A DNA stretch of 21,475 bases from an uncultured virus (IMG/VR IMGVR_UViG_3300046336_000146) (lineage: Duplodnaviria; Heunggongvirae; Uroviricota; Caudoviricetes). The position numbers and the translations under genes were made by a program. The notes below the pieces were generated by a model that ran no database searches, had not been told where the DNA came from, and worked only from the letters and a program-made list of their open reading frames with translations. This document shows, in pieces, positions 406 through 19,860 of the stretch. Numbering within the stretch: the first letter of the stretch is position 1; every line of letters begins with the position of its first letter. The stretch lies in IMG/VR virus record IMGVR_UViG_3300046336_000146; one strand, 5' to 3'.

Positions 406-437
406 TTTGCACATATAATATATTAGTTGTATATTTG
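406..437 (+). promoter_or_regulatory. Bacteroidota housekeeping-type promoter upstream of the DGR operon
   Basis: TTTG (406-409), 20-nt spacer, TATATTTG (430-437). Confidence 0.8.
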
Positions 438-463: not shown

Positions 464-925
464 ATGAAAACAATAATTCAAATTAACGGTAAAGATGTAG
501 AAATTACACTTACTAAAGAACAAGTAGTGCAGATAAACAAACAAAAAGAATTAGATGCTTCAACTTGCACGTTACAAGACTGTATTGATTACTTAGGAGA
601 AAATGACCAAGAAGTTATTAATTTAAGACAATTAGAAAAAGTAAGTATCTCTGATTATGTTTTAGCTAATCAACAAGCTGTTTGTATCATTAAAGCATTA
701 AATGGGGATTGGACTCCTAATTGGAACAACTCAAATGAATATAAATATTTTATTTGGTGGAATATGCAAAACAAAGATTTCTCGTACTACGACTTCGACC
801 ACCATTGGTTTTCTTGCTCGCTTGTTTCCGCACGCCTCTGTCTAAAAAACTCAAGATTATGCCAAGACATTGGTAAAAATAAAGAATTTGTGAAAATTTT
901 CACAAAATTTATGCTTATAGGTTAA
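464..925 (+). CDS. DGR target protein 1 (153 aa; VR-bearing, probable C-type-lectin-like domain)
   Basis: Contains VR1 (SYYDFDHHWFSCSLVSARLC); paralog of 2028..2444 (shared MKTI..INGK..EITLTKEQ, PxWxNSNxYKY and VSARLC). Confidence 0.9.
   Translation: MKTIIQINGKDVEITLTKEQVVQINKQKELDASTCTLQDCIDYLGENDQEVINLRQLEKVSISDYVLANQQAVCIIKALNGDWTPNWNNSNEYKYFIWWNMQNKDFSYYDFDHHWFSCSLVSARLCLKNSRLCQDIGKNKEFVKIFTKFMLIG
781..841 (+). repeat. DGR variable repeat VR1
   Basis: Aligns to TR 945-1002 with 15 mismatches at TR A, one non-A mismatch (G to C) in the 3' block, and one extra codon. Confidence 0.93.
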
Positions 926-1095
926 TATGTTGAATGTTTTACCCCTCGTACAACAACTACAACAATTGGAATTCTAACTCGAATATTTCCACACACCAGT
1001 GTTCAACAAAATTAAAAAGTATTAACCTTACCAACAGGGTAAAAAACAAATAAAAGCCTCAAAAGGTTGTTAGTAAATAAAATGAAAGCAACCTT
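919..1095 (+). ncRNA. DGR template RNA (TR with structured flanks and spacer)
   Basis: Nested helices 919-927/1020-1028 and 928-935/1001-1008 enclose TR; spacer hairpins at 1028-1042 and 1063-1071/1087-1095. Confidence 0.7.
945..1002 (+). repeat. DGR template repeat TR
   Basis: C TCG TAC AAC AAC TAC AAC AAT TGG AAT TCT AAC TCG AAT ATT TCC ACA CAC CAG TGT; intergenic, immediately upstream of the RT. Confidence 0.95.
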
Positions 1096-1111
1096 CTTTG
1101 AACAGAGAAAG

Positions 1112-2047
1112 ATGAAAAGAATAGGAAACATATTTGATAAAGTAGTCAGCTTAGAGAATTTAAAAATCGCCGATAAAAAAGCTAAAAGAGGAAAAGCAAA
1201 TCAAAAAGAAATAAGAGAGTATTTTAAAAACAGAGAGGCTAATTTAGAAACACTTCATAACAGTTTAATTAATGGAGAATTTAAAACGTCCAACTATTCT
1301 GTTTTTAAAGTATATGAGCCAAAAGAAAGAATAATATCAAAACTACCTTTCTTCCCCGACAGAATAATTCAATGGGGTCTTTATTTACAGTTAGAAAATA
1401 TATTTACATCTACATTTACTGTGGACACTTATAGTGCAATAAAAGGAAGAGGTATTCATAAATTATCAAATAATTTAATTAAGTCTTTAAAAGATTTAAA
1501 TAAAACAACGTATTGTTTAAAGTTAGATATAAAACAATTTTATCCATCTATAGACAATAGTATCCTAAAAAACAAGATAAGGCGTAAAATAAAATGTAAA
1601 AAGACACTATATTTATTAGATAATATTATAGATTCCGCAAAAGGCTTACCTCTTGGTAATTTATTAAGTCAGCTGTTTGCTAATGTTTATCTTAATGAGT
1701 TAGACCATTACATAAAACAAGATTTAAAAGCAAAGTATTATTTTAGGTATTGTGATGACATTTGTATTTTATCAAATAATAAACAGGAGTTACATAGTAC
1801 ATTACATATTTTAAAGAGTAAATTAGCAGATATAAAATTAGAAGTTAAGGGTAACTATCAGATTTTTCCTGTAGAAAAAAGAGGAATTGATATTGTAGGG
1901 TACAAACATTTCCATACACATAAATTGTTAAGAAAATCAATTAAAAAGAATTATATTAAAAACAAGAATAAAAAGACACATTATTCGTGGTTAAAACATT
2001 GTAACTCAAAAAATTTAAGAAAAACTTATGAAAACAATCAAGATTAA
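1112..2047 (+). CDS. DGR reverse transcriptase (about 311 aa)
   Basis: Motifs PKERII, DRIIQ, KLDIKQFYPSI, GLPLGNLLSQLFAN (DGR-type GNxxSQ) and YFRYCDD; no maturase or endonuclease tail. ATG 1112 (MKRIGN) preferred over TTG 1067, which lies inside the spacer hairpin. Confidence 0.95.
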   Translation: MKRIGNIFDKVVSLENLKIADKKAKRGKANQKEIREYFKNREANLETLHNSLINGEFKTSNYSVFKVYEPKERIISKLPFFPDRIIQWGLYLQLENIFTSTFTVDTYSAIKGRGIHKLSNNLIKSLKDLNKTTYCLKLDIKQFYPSIDNSILKNKIRRKIKCKKTLYLLDNIIDSAKGLPLGNLLSQLFANVYLNELDHYIKQDLKAKYYFRYCDDICILSNNKQELHSTLHILKSKLADIKLEVKGNYQIFPVEKRGIDIVGYKHFHTHKLLRKSIKKNYIKNKNKKTHYSWLKHCNSKNLRKTYENNQD

Positions 2048-2444
2048 CATTAATGGTAAAGAAACTGAAATTACTTTAACAAAAGAACAGTTAAAACAAA
2101 TCGAAAATTCAAATCCTATACAAAAAGTTTTTGAATATCATAACACAACAGAAGAACAATTTGATAAACAATACAAAGATGTTTCTGAATTTGCAAAAGC
2201 ACAAGAAATAGAAAGAATGGTTGTCAATTTTTATAACAAAGGGGAGATACCTGATTGGGATAATAGTAATCAATATAAGTATTATCCGTATTTTAAATTA
2301 GGTAAAAACTTCTCGTACTACCGCTACCACGATTGGAATTCTTACTCGAATGTTTCCGCACGCCTCTGCTTTTTAAGAAAAGAAGACTTATTGGAAGCGG
2401 TAGAAATATTTAAAGAACAATACGAAAATTCAAGAAACCAATAG
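2028..2444 (+). CDS. DGR target protein 2 (138 aa)
   Basis: Contains VR2 (SYYRYHDWNSYSNVSARLC); start overlaps the RT 3' end; paralog of target 1. Confidence 0.9.
   Translation: MKTIKININGKETEITLTKEQLKQIENSNPIQKVFEYHNTTEEQFDKQYKDVSEFAKAQEIERMVVNFYNKGEIPDWDNSNQYKYYPYFKLGKNFSYYRYHDWNSYSNVSARLCFLRKEDLLEAVEIFKEQYENSRNQ
2312..2368 (+). repeat. DGR variable repeat VR2
   Basis: Ungapped 57-nt alignment to TR 945-1001 with 10 mismatches at TR A and one G to C in the 3' block. Confidence 0.95.
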
Positions 2445-3207: not shown

Positions 3208-4170
3208 ATGAATCAAACAATTAAAAAAGTAAATCAAGAGAAAATTCTTTTTATGGACATTGAGGACGTAAGAAGGAGTAAAGAGTTAGACATAAATTCA
3301 AGAGAGTTTGAGTTATTTCGTAAAAAAACAAGAAACAAAGAAACAGATGAATATCTAACTAATAATGAAGTTATTGTAGAATACCAAAAGAAAGCAGCAT
3401 TAAAAATGTGTTACACTAAAATTGTATGCATTGGTGTAGGTTTTATTAAAGATGGACAAGTACATATTAAATCTTTAGAAGGTATGGAAGAAGAAGTTAT
3501 TAAACAGTTCTGTACAATAGCTCAGAATTTTGATTACATGTGTTTTTCAAACGGAATTACTTTTGACCTACCTATGGTCATTAACAATGGGTATAGATAT
3601 TTTGAGGTATGTGAAGTACTCCCTGACCGATTTATTACAAGTGGTAAAAAACAGTGGAACTTAGACAGATTAATTGACCTTCAAGAGGTCTTTAAAGGTA
3701 CTCATTACTATGCAAGCTCTTTAGATGAAATGTGCTATCATTTTGATTTATCATCACCAAAATCTGATTTAGATGGAAGTCAAGTTTCAGATGAATATTG
3801 GAACAATGGTATTGAAAAAATAAGTAAATATGTAAAACAGGATGTATTTGCCTGCGTAAATCTATTTAAAAAAATGAGATTTGAACAACCTTTTGAAACA
3901 TTTATAGACAAAAATGAATATACAACAGTTGTTCCTTTTGTAGAAGAATTACCATTATTGAAAAGAATCAATTCTTCAAAAGATATTTCCAATGAAAATA
4001 AAGAAGAATTAATACAGCTTCTAAAAAAGAAAAAATTAGCAAAAAAAGACAATGACAAAGTTTTAGACTTAATTAGCGCTTCTTTAGCAAATATAGATCA
4101 AAATTTTGGAGCGGTAAGAAACCAAAAGCAAATAGATGAAATCATTAACCAATTAAAAGAAGAGATTTGA
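3208..4170 (+). CDS. DnaQ-like (DEDD) 3'-5' exonuclease
   Basis: ExoI FMDIE, ExoII NGITFDLP, ExoIII YVKQDV. Confidence 0.85.
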   Translation: MNQTIKKVNQEKILFMDIEDVRRSKELDINSREFELFRKKTRNKETDEYLTNNEVIVEYQKKAALKMCYTKIVCIGVGFIKDGQVHIKSLEGMEEEVIKQFCTIAQNFDYMCFSNGITFDLPMVINNGYRYFEVCEVLPDRFITSGKKQWNLDRLIDLQEVFKGTHYYASSLDEMCYHFDLSSPKSDLDGSQVSDEYWNNGIEKISKYVKQDVFACVNLFKKMRFEQPFETFIDKNEYTTVVPFVEELPLLKRINSSKDISNENKEELIQLLKKKKLAKKDNDKVLDLISASLANIDQNFGAVRNQKQIDEIINQLKEEI

Positions 4171-4907
4171 AATTAGATAAAATAAACTTACCTCGTAAGT
4201 ATGATTACAAAGAAGGTATTACGAACCCACTGTACAAACCTTTTAATGGGTGGAATAAAGTTTCATATAGTCAGTTAGGCTCTATGAAAGAGTATAAGCT
4301 AGGGTACTTGCAGGATTATATCCTTGATATTGGGACAGGGGAGAGTGGAATTTTCGCTTCGTACGGAAGTGCTGTAGGGATGTATTTTGAGGACGGTACT
4401 GTAAATGAATTATTATCTGAAAACGACATTGAAATAATTAATAGACTTCAAAAACAAGATGATTCTATTTGTGAAGCAGAAATAGTAATTAATTTAGAGC
4501 CATTTGGTCTTGAAAAGACGTGTTTACAGGGATTTTCAGATTATGAACATGTTTTGTATAACAAAAAGTTTATAGAAGATTTAAAAACAGGAAATTCCAC
4601 TAATATGCTAACTAAGTATGGAGATATGAATAAGTACTTCCAAACAAGGCTTTATGCTTACCAAAGAGAAAATGAAGGTTTTGAAATTGGCGGCTGTAGA
4701 GTTAATCATTTAGGACGTAAAGGAAATAACATTATAAAAGGAGATAAAAACTGTTTAAGACTGAGCGGTGATATAGATTATATCCCTACACCTTATAAAA
4801 GAGAAGATGTAGAAAACTATTTAAAAGAAACAGTAGTACCTATTTGTAAAGAAATTTCAGAGTATTATTTAGTTTACAATAAATATTTTTCGCCGAAAAC
4901 AAAGTAA
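4167..4907 (+). CDS. PD-(D/E)XK family exonuclease (RecB/Cas4-like superfamily)
   Basis: SYSQL, GFSDY, IEDLKTG and QTRLY motifs; TTG start overlaps the upstream TGA. Confidence 0.75.
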   Translation: MKLDKINLPRKYDYKEGITNPLYKPFNGWNKVSYSQLGSMKEYKLGYLQDYILDIGTGESGIFASYGSAVGMYFEDGTVNELLSENDIEIINRLQKQDDSICEAEIVINLEPFGLEKTCLQGFSDYEHVLYNKKFIEDLKTGNSTNMLTKYGDMNKYFQTRLYAYQRENEGFEIGGCRVNHLGRKGNNIIKGDKNCLRLSGDIDYIPTPYKREDVENYLKETVVPICKEISEYYLVYNKYFSPKTK

Positions 4908-4937
4908 AGCAAAAAATAAAATAAAACAGCAAATAAA

Positions 4938-4969
4938 TTTGCATAATAAAAATAAAATGCTTATTTTTG
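4938..4969 (+). promoter_or_regulatory. Bacteroidota-type promoter upstream of the secreted protein gene and the RNA island
   Basis: TTTG (4938-4941), 20 nt, TATTTTTG (4962-4969). Confidence 0.75.
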
Positions 4970-4994
4970 TAAAATAAAATTTAAATTAAAAACT

Positions 4995-5399
4995 ATGAAA
5001 AAATTACTATTAGGAGCTCTACTACTATTGAGTACATTGACATTTTCTCAAGCATTAGAAAAGTCAGCTTATTATAAATCAGATTTAACTATATATTCTG
5101 GAGGAAGTAGTCAAGATTATACAATGTATTTCCAAGTAACTTCTAGTGGAGACGTTAAGATGCTTGAAAGCAAATACGGTAGTACATATGCTTTTAAAGC
5201 AAGTAATACTTCATCGAATAATCATACTACAGTATACACTTGGTTAAACAATGGAGGTATATGGTCAGAATCACAAACATTTGTGTTTACTAAAGACGAT
5301 GAAACTGGCAATATAGATTTATTAACAATGAGAGTTGTTAAAAATGAAGGAAAAGGTCCTTGGCAAACATATGGTATAGGTATTGTTGAAAAATTATAA
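4995..5399 (+). CDS. Secreted/periplasmic beta-rich hypothetical protein
   Basis: Sec signal MKKLLLGALLLLSTLTFS followed by Gln. Confidence 0.75.
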   Translation: MKKLLLGALLLLSTLTFSQALEKSAYYKSDLTIYSGGSSQDYTMYFQVTSSGDVKMLESKYGSTYAFKASNTSSNNHTTVYTWLNNGGIWSESQTFVFTKDDETGNIDLLTMRVVKNEGKGPWQTYGIGIVEKL

Positions 5400-5406
5400 A
5401 TAATAT

Positions 5407-5646
5407 TAAAACAACACACAGAAAGACAAACAAATAATAAACAAGGGGAGACACCTGCGAAAACGAAGTTAATTACAAAACTATCAAGAGGTTTTACGTT
5501 TGTTGAGTATAATAGTTATATTGAATGGAAAGCTTTATCATTTATAAATATGAGAGTTTAGCCAGTAGGTCTGTAAAAATAGATTGAGCTTACGAACTTC
5601 TCGCATTTGATATAATTATTCCCATCTTGAGGGGTGTGTTGTTTTA
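5407..5646 (+). ncRNA. Unassigned structured RNA A (about 240 nt)
   Basis: Perfect 13-bp closing helix 5407-5419/5634-5646; 17-bp helix with 3 G-U pairs at 5511-5527/5604-5620; possible pseudoknot 5484-5489/5625-5630. Confidence 0.65.
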
Positions 5647-5650
5647 GCAT

Positions 5651-5757
5651 AAACTACTATAGTGGGTAAGTTAAGACTCTCCTGTAAAAGTGCTGTTCTC
5701 TTAGGATATAAATTACGCTAAGATAAATAAGTAAGTGTGCGAACACTATAGTAGTTT
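5651..5757 (+). ncRNA. Unassigned structured RNA B (about 107 nt)
   Basis: Perfect 14-bp closing helix 5651-5664/5744-5757; internal TCTTAG/CTAAGA hairpin. Confidence 0.5.
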
Positions 5758-5764
5758 TTAAAAT

Positions 5765-5889
5765 GACCAAGTGGCGGAAATGGTAGACGCATAGGTTTTA
5801 AAGGTTCGGTAATCAAGATGAGTGTATAAGCAATAGAAGCTCTGAGAGAAAAAGCCACCTAAATACAGGTTCGAATCCTGTCTTGGTCA
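5765..5889 (+). tRNA. tRNA-Leu(TAA)-like element with a 53-nt insertion in the anticodon loop
   Basis: Acceptor GACCAAG/CTTGGTC plus A discriminator; Leu-type D arm GCG-GAAATGGTAGA-CGC; T arm ACAGG-TTCGAAT-CCTGT; anticodon stem TAGGT (5792-5796)/ACCTA (5857-5861); no long variable arm; no encoded CCA. Confidence 0.65.
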
Positions 5890-7280
5890 CGATGCCAGAC
5901 AATATAATAGTAAGGTTACTGGTTCATGGAGTAGTTGCTAATTTAGTTAATTGTATCTCAAATACATTTCAGACTTTAGGTGACAGCTCAATTAGGTCTT
6001 CTATTACTGTAATCACAGTTGAAAATAGCGTGAGAAACTATAAGTAAACTGTGAACAGTTAAAATAAACAGTACTCCCTAAGTCAAAGCAATGTACATTG
6101 CTGGAAGTCATAGACAAACCAAGACTGTCTGTAAGGGGAAATCAGTAGGTAATCTGATTAAGGCTAAACATTGATCCTTTGTAAATTAAATAGAGACACA
6201 AGTGAGATGAAACGTAGTGGGAGACTAAATAGGCATTTATCCCATCGATGTTAATTTACATAAAGATACTAATCCTGAATTGGCAGGATGTTAATACCTC
6301 TACGAGTGCTTTGGTAGCGCAGTTAAAGAGGTGGGTAAATTTAATGGAGTGATCCTAGTATCTTTCAATGTTTAACTAAACTCAACGTACCTGCGGAGTA
6401 GAACATCAGGTGTAAAAACTCGGAAAACATTGACACGAGTATAAATAATAATATCAATTGTAAGATTGAATGTGTTGTTCCCTTGAGAAAGGAATCCGTA
6501 GCTATCTATCAGTGTAGACAACACAAATGAATCTTAATATATGCCCTATTTATAGGGCATATATTAAATTTCTAATAAAAAAATCATGATAAATGAAGAG
6601 TGGAGAGATGTACCAAACTATGAAGGATTATATTTAATAAGTGATTTAGGGAACATTAAATCTAAATACACAGATAAATTATTAAAGCCATCTCAAGATA
6701 AATTTGGATATGTTAGATTTTCTGCAACTAAAAACAAAAAGCAAAAGACCTTAAGAATTCACAGAATAGTTGCAGAAATATTTATACCAAATCCAAAAAA
6801 TTTACCTCAAGTAAATCATATTGACGGAAACAAATTGAATTGTGCAAAATCAAATCTTGAATGGTCTACTGATTCTGAAAATAAAATACATGCATATACA
6901 AATGGATTAATGATTGGAGGCAATCAATATTCTAAAAAAAGAAAAGATTTACCAAGATATAAGTTGAAATCTACCAACTTTAATTAGAAGATTATAGTAA
7001 TATAATCCACAGATGAAAATGTAAAGAGATAAGTTTCTATAAACTGTGAGAAGTTCTCAGCAAACAGAAAAACCAGTTAGTAATATGAAAAATTATACTT
7101 GAAAGCTGCAATTATCTGTGTGACCCTACTCTTATTGCAGATGCCAAGCAACTAATATAAGACAAGAGGGTGCTCAAAAATATCAAACTTTCGACCCTCT
7201 CCCAACAAAGTGCTACACCCACGGAGTTGAACAGCGAGAGGACGCTACCTGAAAGTGACACAGTGACCTCACATTCGAGG
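5890..7280 (+). ncRNA. Large ornate RNA, ROOL-like (GOLLD not excluded), interrupted by an HNH ORF; ends approximate
   Basis: Lies between two tRNA genes. Ordered motifs GGAGTAG, GACTTTAGG, GTTGAAAATAGCGTGAG, CAAACCAAGACTGTC, GTAGGTAATC, GTGAGAAGTTCTCAG, GCTCAAAA and TGAACAGCGAGAG match my recollection of ROOL. Many helices, including pairings across the ORF. Confidence 0.6.
6586..6987 (+). CDS. NUMOD4-HNH homing endonuclease (133 aa)
   Basis: EEWRDVPNYEGLYLISDLGNIKS (NUMOD4); HRIVAEIF...VNHIDGNKLN..KSNLEW...EN..H (HNH_3 type). Confidence 0.93.
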   Translation: MINEEWRDVPNYEGLYLISDLGNIKSKYTDKLLKPSQDKFGYVRFSATKNKKQKTLRIHRIVAEIFIPNPKNLPQVNHIDGNKLNCAKSNLEWSTDSENKIHAYTNGLMIGGNQYSKKRKDLPRYKLKSTNFN

Positions 7281-7286
7281 TAAACA

Positions 7287-7358
7287 GGTCTCGTAGCTCA
7301 GAAGTAGAGCAAGGCACTCATAATGCCGAGGTCGGGATAGCATAATTCCCCGAGACCA
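7287..7358 (+). tRNA. tRNA with CAT anticodon (elongator Met or lysidine-Ile), non-canonical D and T loops
   Basis: GGTCTCG/CGAGACC acceptor, GCTC/GAGC D stem, GGCA-CTCATAA-TGCC anticodon arm, AGGTC variable loop, GGGA/TCCC T stem with AGCATAA loop; no encoded CCA. Confidence 0.75.
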
Positions 7359-7366
7359 CAAATATC

Positions 7367-7738
7367 AACAATGTGGCTTATTGTTAAATTCTAAGATAAC
7401 GTGCCGTTTAAAACTAGCGAGGGTTTTAATAAAAAGAGACACTTAGAGGGGGGAAGGCTTTTACAAACCAAACAGACAGAGCAGTATGGAAGATATTAAA
7501 GTATGCCTCAATAATACCAAGGCATCTGCTCTGTTTTTAAACCAAAAAGAGTGGGCGCAACAAAACTCATTTGGAAGTAAGTAGAAGTTAAGTTGTATTT
7601 TATGGTGTAACAGTTCAGAGACCATAATCTGAGAGACTGAATTGAGGTAAAGATTCCCTTCCGATAAGAAGAATAGGGATAAATAAGAAACAGAGGGTTG
7701 GTGTATAGAGCATACTGTTTCTTTATTTTTATTGCGCC
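7367..7738 (+). ncRNA. Unassigned pseudoknot-rich RNA D (about 370 nt)
   Basis: At least six helices plus several 6-7 bp loop-to-distal complementarities; no plus-strand ORF in the track. Confidence 0.6.
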
Positions 7739-7768
7739 AAAATAATAAAGAAAAAATAACACTTTTTC

Positions 7769-7800
7769 CTTGAGTAATAAAAATAAAGTCCTTACATTTG
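7769..7800 (+). promoter_or_regulatory. Bacteroidota-type promoter
   Basis: CTTG, 20 nt, TACATTTG. Confidence 0.75.
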
Positions 7801-11430: not shown

Positions 11431-11934
11431 ATGTTAAAACAAACCTTTTTATTAACTGCTTGCGTTGTATTATGTAGCGGTTACGGTCAAATTAAGTTTA
11501 AAGATATAGAAACTTTTAATATATCAGTTGTGATAGACCCTAAAGTTACTATAGAGGAAAAAATACCAAATATAGGTGTTGAAATAGAGTATTCTGGCCC
11601 TATGTATGCAAGAGCGTCAATTACTACATTTCCTGCCTTAAAAGGAGGGTATATTGATGGAACAGGTGCTTTTGGGTTTACTATGTCTACTGGAACATTT
11701 GACAGAACAAATTTATACTCAGGTTTAAGAATAGGATTAATAAAAAGAGATACTTTTACTTATCCTACGTATGGATTTGAAGCAGGAATAAATTATAATC
11801 TAACAGAAAATCTGTTATTAGGAATAAGGAGTACTTTTGATTATAGAAATGACCTTGTATTTACTGGTGGAAATCCTTCATTTAAATATAGCGGATTTGT
11901 CAAGATTGGATATACGTGGAATTATAAAAATTAA
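11431..11934 (+). CDS. Putative small outer-membrane beta-barrel protein
   Basis: Signal peptide ending GYG-Q; amphipathic Gly/aromatic strands (YGFEAGINYNL, GFVKIGYTW). Confidence 0.65.
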   Translation: MLKQTFLLTACVVLCSGYGQIKFKDIETFNISVVIDPKVTIEEKIPNIGVEIEYSGPMYARASITTFPALKGGYIDGTGAFGFTMSTGTFDRTNLYSGLRIGLIKRDTFTYPTYGFEAGINYNLTENLLLGIRSTFDYRNDLVFTGGNPSFKYSGFVKIGYTWNYKN

Positions 11935-11943
11935 CAAAAAACT

Positions 11944-12435
11944 ATGAAAAAATTATTATTAATTGCACTACTATCTAGTGGGGCATACTCTCAGACAAAT
12001 TTCCATTTTTACTATGGTTTTAATGAATCACTAGGAGCAGAGTTATTGATAAATGGTAAGTATGGCTTCGGTTTTTCGGGAACAACAGAAAAAACAAAAG
12101 CATTAGGAGATTTTTCTCCAGGAGCTATTAATGATTACGATAGAAAAAACATTGTATCTACTGTTACCCAAAAATGGTTTGCTTTATACTCTACCGTTGG
12201 AGCAGTTTACGTGAAAGACTTTCAAATCAGTTTAGATGTGGGTGGAGCATTATACGGTAGGCACGCTAATTTCTTAGACCCTAATCGTAATCAATATTAT
12301 CACAAAAAAGACAAAGTTAATATCAAAGGAATGATAGGTATTAATGCTACATATCCAATTACAAAAGATATTGGTTGGCAAGTAGGAATTGATACTTTTA
12401 GCGGAGTTAATACTGGATTTGTAGTTTACTTTTAA
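11944..12435 (+). CDS. Putative small outer-membrane beta-barrel protein
   Basis: Signal peptide ending AYS-Q; alternating strands; C-terminal Phe (TGFVVYF) resembling a beta-signal. Confidence 0.7.
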   Translation: MKKLLLIALLSSGAYSQTNFHFYYGFNESLGAELLINGKYGFGFSGTTEKTKALGDFSPGAINDYDRKNIVSTVTQKWFALYSTVGAVYVKDFQISLDVGGALYGRHANFLDPNRNQYYHKKDKVNIKGMIGINATYPITKDIGWQVGIDTFSGVNTGFVVYF

Positions 12436-12844: not shown

Positions 12845-13213
12845 ATGAAGTTAATAATTAAAGAAGGAAGTACTAACTATGCTTGTAGTGTAGTAGAAAT
12901 TAAAGACTTGTTTCCTATAGAAGGGGCAGATAATGTTTTAAGAGTAGTTGTGAATGGAAATAATGTTGTTGTACCTAAATCGACAGAAATAGGCAGTAAA
13001 ATGTTGTATTTCCCTTCAGGTTGTAAGCTTAGTGAAGATTACTGTAAAAATAATAGTCTCTACGATAAAGAAGAATATAATTTAGACAACACAAAGAAAG
13101 GGTTTATATCTTTTAAAAACAGGAGAATAAAATGTTTAAGGCTCAGAGGAGTCGTCTCTGATGGAATGTTGATGCCTATAGAAAGTTTAAATTATATAGA
13201 AAATGATAAGTAG
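12845..13213 (+). CDS. RNA ligase, N-terminal fragment (DRB0094-family N-domain)
   Basis: PIEGADN...RIKCLRLRGVVSDGMLMP resembles the OB/tRNA-binding-like N-terminus of DRB0094-type ligases; no ligase catalytic motifs. Confidence 0.75.
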   Translation: MKLIIKEGSTNYACSVVEIKDLFPIEGADNVLRVVVNGNNVVVPKSTEIGSKMLYFPSGCKLSEDYCKNNSLYDKEEYNLDNTKKGFISFKNRRIKCLRLRGVVSDGMLMPIESLNYIENDK

Positions 13214-14159
13214 TATAGGAAAACACTATCTTTACCGTCATATTAGACTTGATACAAAAGAGCCTTTTTACATAGGAATAGGGACAAAAAGAAATTGTAA
13301 GAACTTTAAGCCTGTGTATGAAAGAGCTTTTGAAGTCAAACGAAGAGGTTCTTTTTGGAAAAATGTAGTGAGCAAAACAGATTATGAAGTTGAAATTCTA
13401 TTAGAATCAGACGATTATGAGTTTATTAAACAAAAAGAAATTGAATTTATTGCTTTATATAAAAGAAAAGATAACTGTAACGGAACACTTGTAAATCTAA
13501 CTGACGGTGGAGACGGGTTTTTAGGACGTCACACGAATGAAACAAAACAAAAAATGATAAAGACTAAGGCTTTAAAAAAGGACACAGTTATTTTATCTAT
13601 TACAGATAAGGTTATATCATTATACTCCAAAGGTGTGATTATAACAGAAATTTCCAAAATAGTAAAAGCAAATAAAGATATAATAAAATCAATATTAAAA
13701 AAGGAGGGCGTGTTAAAAAACTCTTCAGATTATAAAAAGGTATGTTTTTATGTGTATAATTTTAAAAATGGAAGTGTAACTTACTATTATTGTAAATATA
13801 ACGAACTATCTAAAATATTTAAAATTAATGAAGGGTGTATAAGAAATCATTGCTACAAGAAAAATAATATTACTGATTGTGGTTATCTTATTTTACAAAA
13901 AGAAGTGCCTTTTGAAGAAGCTAAGTTAGAGTACAATAATAGAGTTCTTAATAAGTGTAAAGTAGAAAAAGAACAAAGAAAAACTTATCAAAAGTACAAT
14001 AAAATTGTTCAAAAAGACCTAAATGGTGAAGTTATTAAGATTTGGGACAGGATGCAGGATATTATTAACGAGCTTGGATTAAAAAATAGTACACCAATAC
14101 TAAGAGTTATAAAAAATCAAAGAAAACATTTTAGAAAATTTATATGGGAAAGATTATAG
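13203..14159 (+). CDS. GIY-YIG homing endonuclease with a NUMOD1-like C-terminus
   Basis: YLYRHIRLDTKEPFYIGIG, KEIEFI and LVNLTDGGDG; C-terminal IVQKDLNGEVIKIW...FIWE. Confidence 0.85.
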   Translation: MISSIGKHYLYRHIRLDTKEPFYIGIGTKRNCKNFKPVYERAFEVKRRGSFWKNVVSKTDYEVEILLESDDYEFIKQKEIEFIALYKRKDNCNGTLVNLTDGGDGFLGRHTNETKQKMIKTKALKKDTVILSITDKVISLYSKGVIITEISKIVKANKDIIKSILKKEGVLKNSSDYKKVCFYVYNFKNGSVTYYYCKYNELSKIFKINEGCIRNHCYKKNNITDCGYLILQKEVPFEEAKLEYNNRVLNKCKVEKEQRKTYQKYNKIVQKDLNGEVIKIWDRMQDIINELGLKNSTPILRVIKNQRKHFRKFIWERL

Positions 14160-15067
14160 AAAAATTAAAAGTAGGAGACGGGTTTACAGATATAGAGATA
14201 AATGGAAGGTTATATCCTATTTGTGAAAAATATATTGTACCTGTTAAAAAAAACAGTCAGGGTGGAGTAAAAGCTTCAAAAACTAATAAATTAAAAGATT
14301 TAATTTTAGATAACCAATTCAGGTTTCATCACGAAACAGAACATTTTGCTAGACATTTAGATAAGTTTACACAAGATACAGAAGTGATTATCACTCGTAA
14401 ACTTCACGGAAGTAGTTTAATTTTATCGAACGTTTTACTAAGAAAGCAATTATCTTTAAAAGAGAAAGCTTTTAAATTTTTGGGAGCGGAAATCCCAACA
14501 ACTGAATATGGTGTTATTTGGTCATCAGGTAAACCTAGGGGAAAGCTTCCAAAAGGGGTTGAATCAAAGACAAATAAATGGGAAACACCTAATCCAAGTT
14601 ATTATTCTTTAGATATTTGGGAAAGAGCTTATAAAGAAATAGGAAATAAGGTTGAAAAAGGAATTTCATTATACGCTGAAATTATAGGGAAAGGTATTCA
14701 GGGAGATCAGTTTACTTATAACCAAGATTATGGGATTTATGTATACAGAATTACTCAAACTTCAATAGAAGGGAATTTGGTGGAATTTTCTTGGGAACAA
14801 ATTAAAAAATATTGTGAAAAATATGGATTAAACTGTGTAGAGGAATATTTTGTAGGTAAAATTAAGGAACTAACTACTGTAGAAGGAGAATTACTACCTT
14901 TCTTACAACAAAAGTATTTAAATAAATCATACCCAGATTGTAGAATTGATGAAGGAGTTTGTATTAGAATTAGAGAAACTGATGAAATATTCAAATTAAA
15001 ATCTCCTAATTTTATTAAAATGGAGAGTGATAATCAAGAAAAAGGAGCAGAAGAACAAGAGAGTTAG
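14144..15067 (+). CDS. RNA ligase, catalytic nucleotidyltransferase fragment (Rnl2/DRB0094-like)
   Basis: Motif I TRKLHGS, III YAEIIG, IV DEGVCIR, V FKLKS. Confidence 0.85.
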   Translation: MGKIIEKLKVGDGFTDIEINGRLYPICEKYIVPVKKNSQGGVKASKTNKLKDLILDNQFRFHHETEHFARHLDKFTQDTEVIITRKLHGSSLILSNVLLRKQLSLKEKAFKFLGAEIPTTEYGVIWSSGKPRGKLPKGVESKTNKWETPNPSYYSLDIWERAYKEIGNKVEKGISLYAEIIGKGIQGDQFTYNQDYGIYVYRITQTSIEGNLVEFSWEQIKKYCEKYGLNCVEEYFVGKIKELTTVEGELLPFLQQKYLNKSYPDCRIDEGVCIRIRETDEIFKLKSPNFIKMESDNQEKGAEEQES

Positions 15068-15106: not shown

Positions 15107-15253
15107 ATGAGCGAGAATAAGAAACTGTATACAGAAAAGGATTTATTAGACCTTCTCATATTCACAGAGTGTCCTAATAGTTTGTCGCACTTAAAAGAAA
15201 TAAAATCAGTATTAAAAATGTGGTTAAAAAAGAAAAACAGTAGAAATGAGTAA
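15107..15253 (+). CDS. Small hypothetical protein (48 aa)
   Basis: Hand-translated MSENKKLYTEKDLL...; fills the gap and overlaps the thyX start. Confidence 0.5.
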   Translation: MSENKKLYTEKDLLDLLIFTECPNSLSHLKEIKSVLKMWLKKKNSRNE

Positions 15254-15926
15254 AGTAGATTTAATTAGTAAAACAGTTGGTGTAGGTAACTACAGAGAGT
15301 TAGATAACAATCAAATTATTGCCGCAATAGCACGACACGGAACAATAAAAGAAGATGGAGGAAAGTTAGTCAAGTATTTAATGGATAATGCTCACTGGAG
15401 TCCTTTACAGCACATTTCTTTTGGATTTAAGGTTGAAACTAGAAGAAGTATTTCTGCTCAAATCTTTAGGCATAGAAGTTTAAATGGTCAAGAATGGAGT
15501 TTAAGATATGCGGAGCCACTAGGTTTTGAAGAAATCGAATTAAGACGTGAACATCCAACTAATAGACAAAGTAGTACTGATATTTTCAATCCAGTATTAG
15601 AAGATGTTTGGGAAGGAGTTGAAGGAAAAGTTACAGCTAAAGATAAAATAGATAAATTATTATTTGACATTAGTAATTTATACGAAGAGTTAACTCAAGC
15701 TGGTGTAGCAAAAGAATGTGCAAGAGATATTCTCCCATTGTGTACTAAAACTACAATCCATGTTACAGGAACACTAAGAGATTTATTAGGTTTTTTGAAT
15801 GTGAGGTGTGATGGGCATTCACAGAAAGAAGTGAGAGATATTGCCACAAGAATTGGAGAAGAGTTAGAAAAAGAACTTCCTGAAATTATGGGCACAATTG
15901 ATTGGAGAAACGGAATGTTCATGTAA
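15246..15926 (+). CDS. thyX: Flavin-dependent thymidylate synthase
   Basis: HWSPL, RHR-x7-SLRY signature, KECARDILP, HSQKEVR. Confidence 0.95.
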   Translation: MSKVDLISKTVGVGNYRELDNNQIIAAIARHGTIKEDGGKLVKYLMDNAHWSPLQHISFGFKVETRRSISAQIFRHRSLNGQEWSLRYAEPLGFEEIELRREHPTNRQSSTDIFNPVLEDVWEGVEGKVTAKDKIDKLLFDISNLYEELTQAGVAKECARDILPLCTKTTIHVTGTLRDLLGFLNVRCDGHSQKEVRDIATRIGEELEKELPEIMGTIDWRNGMFM

Positions 15927-16146: not shown

Positions 16147-16178
16147 CTTGTGAGGAATAAAAATTAAATGTATATTTG
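16147..16178 (+). promoter_or_regulatory. Bacteroidota-type promoter
   Basis: CTTG, 20 nt, TATATTTG. Confidence 0.78.
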
Positions 16179-16206
16179 CAGAGTAAAAATTTAAAAACGA
16201 AAACCT

Positions 16207-19815: not shown

Positions 19816-19847
19816 AAAATTAAATGTATATTTGCAGAGTAAAAATT
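19816..19847 (+). promoter_or_regulatory. Promoter core, exact 32-bp copy of 16160-16191
   Basis: AAAATTAAATGTATATTTGCAGAGTAAAAATT containing TATATTTG. Confidence 0.7.
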
Positions 19848-19860
19848 AACAAATACAATT

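Follow-up and report, generated by a model that had tools for sequence, protein, structure and literature searches.

The window analyzed here, a 21,475-nt stretch of DNA from an uncultured Caudoviricetes virus (IMG/VR record IMGVR_UViG_3300046336_000146), carries at positions 464 to 2,444 a diversity-generating retroelement (DGR) composed of two small target genes, T1 and T2, a template repeat (TR) along with a reverse transcriptase (RT). The element is an Avd-less DGR of the Bacteroidota-phage class, and this copy is an ordinary member of a class that has already been catalogued. The gene context of its relatives gives good support to a location outside the virion module and supports T1 and T2 being early cytoplasmic products and not tail parts. 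New in this analysis are the predicted T1-T2 dimer, the pairing of long with short targets together with their fusions, and a covarying RNA clamp around the TR. On balance, we lean towards T1 and T2 being intracellular binders of a host protein that varies between strains.

The cassette and its repeats

T1, the TR, the RT and T2 are all located on the + strand in the order T1-TR-RT-T2. The features of the cassette, including the two variable repeats (VR1 and VR2), are as follows.

406..437, + strand: match to the Bacteroidota-type housekeeping promoter, -33 at 406-409 and -7 at 430-437, 26 nt upstream of the T1 start
464..925, + strand: target gene T1, 153 aa, small soluble PC_00007-type protein
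781..840, + strand: VR1 (781-836, carrying a 3-nt insertion that is derived) and the common 3' block (823-840), which resembles an initiation of mutagenic homing (IMH) site
920..928, + strand: 5' arm of the putative TR-clamping long-range RNA helix, overlapping the final T1 codons; family covariation
945..1002, + strand: template repeat with seven AAY codons; the homology is A-specific over 945-997, and an IMH*-like tail extends to about 1002
1019..1109, + strand: spacer RNA, RT-17-like; putative clamp 3' arm 1019-1027, hairpin 1028-1042, adenines, second hairpin
1112..2047, + strand: RT of the DGR (311 aa), with YCDD at 1748 and a 20-nt overlap with the start of T2
2028..2444, + strand: gene of the second target, T2 (138 aa), paralogous to T1
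2312..2368, + strand: VR2 (2312-2364) and the common 3' block (2351-2368)

An earlier sequence-only reading of the window had described a compact two-target DGR of about 2 kb, and the element proved genuine, with TR/VR mismatches confined to A and an intact RT. The RT frame is open without interruption from 1067 to 2047, and the ATG at 1112 agrees with the starts of the relatives. It matched RVT_1 (E 3e-19), and its best named matches were DGR RTs, including BPP-1 brt (36% identical). The nearest named RTs are crAss-like (44-51% identity) and adjoin tail genes. The distance from the T1 stop to the RT start is 187 nt, leaving no space for avd in the cassette, and avd (PF22296) was absent from all three complete related genomes (G001-G003).

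The A-specific homology of the TR covers 53 nt with 20 A (945-997) and fades to about 1002. The sequence-only reading had a 58-nt TR serving two VRs; the templating of both stood, and the length of the A-specific part came down to 53 nt. VR2 aligned to the TR without gaps and differed at 9 of 53 positions, all nine at TR adenines (chance 3.8e-5), and six of these fell within 945-984, the same six counted before. VR1 displayed 13-14 mismatches, all at A (chance about 1e-7), given a 3-nt gap in the AAC run, with 10-11 of them within 945-984. The earlier count of eleven thus holds in the gapped alignment, but the 3-nt insertion that it requires had gone unmentioned; without the gap there were 4 non-A mismatches when anchored 3' and 15 when anchored 5'. 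This one-codon insertion is a derived feature: at 151-152 aa, all of the 13 nearest T1 homologues are shorter than the 153 aa found here. TR 945-984 contains 16 A as reported earlier, therefore 4^16 is correct as a ceiling at the DNA level; TR codons 1-13 permit about 1.1e10 proteins per target.

The two VRs lie in the coding 3' regions of T1 and T2 and have an 18-nt 3' block in common. This block is IMH/IMH*-like: it carries a non-A mismatch to the TR (TR position 999), as is usual for IMH and IMH*. No third VR was present within the window and no remote match exceeded 16/20; likewise, remote VRs in G001 and G003 were not found above 15/20. A search for a GC-rich hairpin 3' of the VRs gave only weak hairpins of about -4 kcal/mol.

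In 16 T2 homologues (78-88% identity), 248 of 256 VR residues could be reached from this TR by A-only change, and so could 186 of 192 in 12 of the 13 T1 homologues, one being excluded from the count for its different register. The A-restricted variation among relatives whose absence the sequence-only reading would have taken as a sign of inactivity was thereby recovered (434 of 448 residues combined). The seven AAY codons displayed 6-10 residues each in the 16 T2 homologues, with nearly invariant flanks; Tyr, Asp and Gly were abundant in the VR codons and Pro was scarce. At the level of homologue comparison, these data show past A-specific diversification across close species. A wider tally of 2,503 A versus 53 non-A mismatches over 181 VRs is inflated by the detection filter and was not used as evidence.

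The target family, the RNA around the template repeat and the predicted dimer

Relatives were obtained from viral-contig scans, which yielded at least 159 loci; all counts of loci and clusters are among the matches listed. A total of 148 loci carried an RT, including the window, and 138 of them encoded the target family. The RTs fell into 94 clusters at 90%, of which 58 were arranged as T-T-TR-RT, 15 had three targets, 13 had one target, seven were arranged as T-TR-RT-T like the window and one was cut. Two or three targets were thus carried by 80 of the 94 clusters, with a median target length of 148 aa. The target profile search retrieved 3,023 clusters at 50% identity. Three queries of the annotated phage collection detected no target-family member, scans of metagenome contigs with T2 and T1 gave no locus, and the genome-contig scan gave a single locus, which was cut. 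The complete large relatives G001-G003 displayed the same layout as the window with two family genes each.

By sequence similarity, the window DGR is placed in target cluster PC_00007 and DGR clade 1 of Roux 2021 (PMC8144416), of viral type and with a Bacteroidota host; the host assignment agrees with the Bacteroidota-type promoter match and with Cellulophaga phi4:1 as the nearest named phage. The genomes of L081, L082, L083, L102, L107 and L120 were all (6/6) listed there with PC_00007, viral, FCB and clade 1; this assignment was made via genome ids and matching RT lengths, and the T1/T2 profile matches the targets of these loci. The window RT is 53-57% identical to RTs of PC_00007-listed loci. 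PC_00007 comprises at least 1,694 target rows, is categorized as 'Phage_other' with an RT cluster named after FP929032.1, and is called non-structural or unknown, PhANNs classifying 1.6% as structural. Adjacent primary and secondary targets and a VR at about 0.65-0.8 of the target length are shared with the window, whereas the RT between the targets (7/94 clusters, against 58/94 with the common order T-T-TR-RT) and the large Lightbulbvirus-like phage are not. No fold, oligomer or function of PC_00007 is given in the accessible part of Roux 2021, and we found no study of ligand, function, fold or oligomer of the family in the open literature, subscription papers and bioRxiv supplements aside.

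The same kind of element was described as lineage 3, architecture A1 and target category f4 by Wu 2018 (PMC5758913), with Galbibacter (120) and Pedobacter (121) as entries in Table S1. These share with the window the lack of avd, targets of about 123-156 aa and a TR of about 70 nt with 17-18 A, in the order TG-TG-TR-RT. Compared by description, entries 120 and 121 were filed as CLec3 yet align poorly to it, and the window models have no CLec match. Remote small second targets were also reported in tail-fibre DGRs of gut Bacteroidota (Wu 2018). Benler 2021 (PMC8008677) proposed a role in phage-host conflict for the non-structural DGR target of Quimbyvirus. This second target resembles T1 and T2 in being non-structural, away from the virion module and near nuclease, methyltransferase and ligase genes; however, in Quimbyvirus a tail gene is served by the same TR, and both targets are called C-type lectins, whereas the targets here are adjacent and non-tail (a comparison by description). 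The novelty implied by the sequence-only reading was therefore overstated, the class being catalogued in Roux 2021 and a conflict role for a non-structural target being in print in Benler 2021.

In two-target loci, the first target was longer than the second in 60 of 65 cases. A quick tree of 157 of the 189 targets, calculated with the VR removed, contained one clade (SH-aLRT 99) holding 58 of 67 last-position targets and 3 of 66 first-position targets. Tandem two-domain proteins accounted for 16 of the best 150 profile matches, and L135 and L158 had two VRs within one open reading frame (ORF). The retention of long and short pairs and of natural tandem fusions in the family suggests a two-domain unit.

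Some loci displayed unusual arrangements. In L082, one TR was found for three dispersed family genes (2355-2774, 5978-6505 and 15117-15644), two of them 3.6 and 8 kb off the cassette. The cassette of L094 (3644-5870) was rearranged to target-RT-target-TR, one target of L006 ended in a second, tandem VR (3559-3746), and a stray VR fragment was located 3' of the RT in L027 (5360-5436).

A 12-pair helix pairs the sequence just past the last upstream target with the TR-RT spacer, where it is followed by a short hairpin and adenines; in the window, 920-928 pairs with 1019-1027. Compensatory changes occurred in 10 of the 12 pairs and 98% of cells were paired, and none of 500 shuffles scored as high (40 loci); slid controls likewise came nowhere near. 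The alignment used 40 of the 89 TR-called loci, picked by eye as typical, and the window lies outside it. The clamp result rests on this covariation test: the TR RNA alone was not significant as a single-sequence fold (z -1.44), and cross-pairing of the flanks was partly specific, 32 of 89 loci being in the best 5%. Covariation thus supports a TR clamped by a putative BPP-1-like stop helix.

The cPRT Stop element of BPP-1 (mtd-avd-TR-brt) also combines an upstream-spacer duplex with a short hairpin and adenines, and the 5' arm overlaps the end of avd there and the end of T1 here (bioRxiv 10.1101/2023.10.23.563531). The conservation survey of that element covered Avd-containing DGRs. BPP-1 and the window share A-specific TR/VR pairs and related RTs, but the window has no Avd, a TR less than half as long and targets that are not tail fibres. 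Rfam RT-17 (RF03020) matched the spacers of 6/6 relatives at 29.7-40.7 bits, whereas the window spacer reached 22.8 bits, under the gathering score of 40.4, and the Rfam model does not include the long-range clamp helix. The authors of the Rfam RT motifs guessed that some of them serve DGRs (PMC5737381).

T1 and T2 are 38% identical over 130 aa, and T1 weakly matches PHROG 11581, where no function is assigned. Their sizes agree with the 138-153 aa given earlier. The absence of signal peptides also agreed with a crude hydropathy scan, which detected neither a hydrophobic N-terminus nor a membrane stretch in T1 or T2; among 189 targets of the family it found one hydrophobic 19-mer and no hydrophobic N-terminus. 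AlphaFold2 models of the two proteins (pLDDT 93 and 89) began with an N-terminal hairpin and three helices, continued with a two-stranded sheet and finished with two helices; the VR is on the second strand of the sheet and the next loop. Neither model had a Foldseek match in the PDB at E <= 0.001 nor a VIA-align hit with Z >= 5 among 48,161 chains, the best being Z 3.5 (rmsd 5.3, 57 aligned) and 3.6 (rmsd 4.5, 58 aligned) to unrelated chains. BFVD matches were uncharacterised phage proteins, several of them crAss-like, and ESM Atlas matches were unnamed clusters. The CLec fold expected from sequence was not recovered in these confident models, and the CLec3 tail-fibre ends of related RT loci weakly aligned with the last 22 VR columns only (probability 48.9). 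The lectin expectation is therefore unconfirmed. A lack of structural look-alikes does not prove a novel fold.

Prediction of the T1+T2 complex gave an ipSAE of 0.75, compared to 0.00 for the best of three unrelated control proteins. Of solved complexes, 116 of 157 reached this mark, against 2 of 215 mismatched pairs; these counts are a rough guide here, as the prediction used our own alignments. Contact agreement among the T1:T2 runs was at least 96%, with a partner pLDDT of at least 82. In the model, T1 96-103 faces T2 105-112 and T2 86-93 faces T1 116-124, so that the 3' half of each VR packs on the partner's strand and the two VRs are therefore adjacent. T1 and T2 are thus predicted to dimerise with their VRs side by side at the interface, and the model suggests a loose resemblance to the two chains of an antibody.

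Gene context and the role of the targets

An annotated neighbour within 2.5 kb was present in 75 of the 94 clusters and absent in 19, annotation being limited to recurrent families and genes of at least 200 aa. A co-oriented replication, recombination, regulation or methylase gene was found within this distance in 66 clusters. No cluster (0/94) had a co-oriented tail gene within 2.5 kb; two had a tail gene on the opposite strand. In 18 Mu-like loci, the cassette was located downstream of and co-oriented with transposase genes, with the virion genes on the opposite strand. In the complete relative G001, terminase, portal and virion genes were encoded on the opposite strand, 35 kb or more from the cassette, and no remote VR was found. 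This context gives good support to a non-virion location of the target genes and supports early cytoplasmic production of T1 and T2. The part of the earlier proposal that has small soluble targets in an early or replication arm, outside the tail module, is supported by these data; the anti-defence or takeover part is still an inference, with no kinship found in PADLOC, Pfam or the PDB.

The following sequence of events is proposed. The transcript would fold so that the T1 end pairs with the spacer, clamps the TR and sets the cDNA stop, as covariation and the analogy to BPP-1 suggest. The RT would copy the TR with adenine misincorporation, according to the established DGR mechanism, and the cDNA would home to both VRs via the common 3' block, rewriting about 10 codons per protein. 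T1 and T2, produced early in the cytoplasm as gene context indicates, are predicted to dimerise pseudo-symmetrically, with each VR strand lying on a beta-strand of the partner, so that one composite variable surface results, on a scaffold without a solved look-alike. This surface may bind a protein that varies with the host strain (a defence or takeover target being the likeliest), in which case the DGR would retune the intracellular side of host range. More tentatively, and with less confidence than in binding as such, T1 and T2 could be a two-chain, antibody-like intracellular binder, that is, DGR-diversified paralogues on a non-lectin scaffold, with a combinatorial surface (also as single-chain fusions) re-targeting host defence or takeover proteins by strain.

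The usual reading of phage DGRs is that they diversify tail fibres. If the dimer model is true, programmed hypermutation would act on intracellular phage-host conflict via a non-lectin scaffold made of paired chains. Directed evolution would then have at its disposal a two-target DGR of 2 kb without Avd and a cytoplasmic binder scaffold of 130-150 aa. The dimer, the long and short pairing and the RNA clamp are concrete testable constructs for a large catalogued class.

Several observations weigh against intracellular binding by a paired scaffold. Eight clusters had a co-oriented head or packaging gene within 2.5 kb, and Roux 2021 allowed that such targets might be unrecognised structural proteins. 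Pfam gave no match for the targets, the PDB sequence search gave chance matches only, and PADLOC gave no match beyond 1 of 59 rows at E 0.006. Regarding the dimer, the controls were unrelated proteins and not homodimers, and the predicted interface is itself pseudo-symmetric. The window T2 does not branch within the short-type clade, and the long-type profile gives it the slightly higher score; therefore, the family-wide pairing argument fits it only loosely. A single upstream target occurred in 13 of the 94 clusters, some of them cut by contig ends, and G004 (141 kb, 96% complete) and G005 have a lone T2 orthologue and no RT. In G002 (L003), the RT is split into two ORFs at 4356-5301, the locus being otherwise syntenic with clean TR/VR pairs. 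Finally, the heterogeneity that the sequence-only reading had proposed to look for did not appear within this strain: strain contigs from four independent runs (X2-X5) were identical to the window in VR1 (X2 and X3) and in VR2 (4/4), in a comparison of consensus sequences, as contigs lose rare variants. Turnover in this population is thus slow or selected against.

This last result would also fit a portable retroelement cassette that is largely neutral, with targets of little importance, and that may be dormant in this strain. The element is lost or broken in three of the five large relatives (the split RT of G002, and G004 and G005) and absent from the syntenic site of Cellulophaga phage phi4:1. 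However, the scaffold is strongly conserved while the VR codons vary, the two subtypes keep their order across many phage types, and DGRs are not known to have a self-copying step. This explanation is very unlikely. We give still less credence to a pairing code, in which VR diversity would tune the choice of dimer partner (the own paralogue or that of a co-infecting relative) instead of an outside ligand. The predicted interface does include variable positions (T2 98, 101, 106, 108 and 109; T1 109, 112, 114, 116, 118, 120 and 121), but the closest contacts are in antiparallel strand register (T1 97-101 with T2 105-108) and probably backbone-driven, close relatives show up to 10 different residues at one position, and lone targets persist.

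A virion accessory role, with the targets as small decoration or tail-tip adaptors encoded outside the structural module and acting in adsorption like Mtd, is quite improbable. Tail proteins account for the majority of DGR targets in phages (PMC8144416), the crAss-like RTs lie beside tail genes, the last VR columns align weakly with CLec3 tail-fibre ends, and the eight clusters adjoining head or packaging genes point the same way. Against these stand the lack of co-oriented tail genes, the distant opposite-strand virion arm of G001, the low structural share of PC_00007 in PhANNs and the small size of the targets, which contain no fibre or anchoring domain. It is also unlikely, if somewhat less so, that the variable surface is a sensor or blocker of competing or superinfecting phages, binding their proteins in the cell. 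The anatomy is equally compatible with this, and many carriers are temperate or Mu-like prophages, in which such cargo would protect the lysogen. However, the orientation of the Mu-like cassettes suggests a lytic early operon and not a lysogen-expressed moron, and there was no fused or linked effector domain, nor a neighbour family in more than 24 of the 94 clusters.

Host phage and other features of the window

The element belongs to a large phage from freshwater whose hosts are Flavobacteria-like. A contig of 145,475 bases is recorded as carrying T2, and eight freshwater metagenome runs, one of them possibly the source, contained at least half of the cassette. The nearest named phages were Cellulophaga phi4:1 and phi17:2 (145 kb), with a 35% identical exonuclease; at the syntenic site, phi4:1 lacks a DGR and carries small hypothetical genes. 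Genes for an endonuclease, a 3'-5' exonuclease, ribonucleotide reductase, thioredoxin, RNA ligase, ThyX and DnaB were identified in the window, in agreement with the nuclease and nucleotide neighbourhood described before.

Using the Bacteroidota promoter consensus of PMC6847099, three -33/-7 sites were detected in the window, compared to a shuffle mean of 0.9. A single host-type promoter is predicted to head T1-TR-RT-T2; the host-type promoter of the sequence-only reading is thus this Bacteroidota match and not sigma-70. A sigma-70 promoter ahead of T1 was rejected, such matches being at chance level (21 in the window, 17.5 expected). The terminator scan of the window gave nothing beyond chance level. 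A 38-nt direct repeat (95%) at 16160-16197 and 19816-19853 contains the Bacteroidota -7 motif and is likely a repeated phage promoter.

The RNA ligase appears to be split, with an OB-fold N-part at 12845-13213, a homing endonuclease ORF at 13203-14159 and the ligase domain at 14144-15067 (12845-15067 overall); these ORFs overlap frame-shifted, which may indicate an intron or translational bypass. The ORFs 4995-5399, 11431-11934 and 11944-12435 have signal-peptide-like starts and no family match and are possibly exported or outer-membrane proteins; two of them have a common 48-nt start region (repeat D4). The region 5400-7800 is mostly non-coding with higher GC and may contain a group I intron and further structured RNAs. 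Rfam tRNA matches were found there at 5765-5889 (about 54 nt too long) and 7287-7358, both missed by ARAGORN, and a NUMOD4/HNH ORF (6586-6987) is located between long non-coding flanks.

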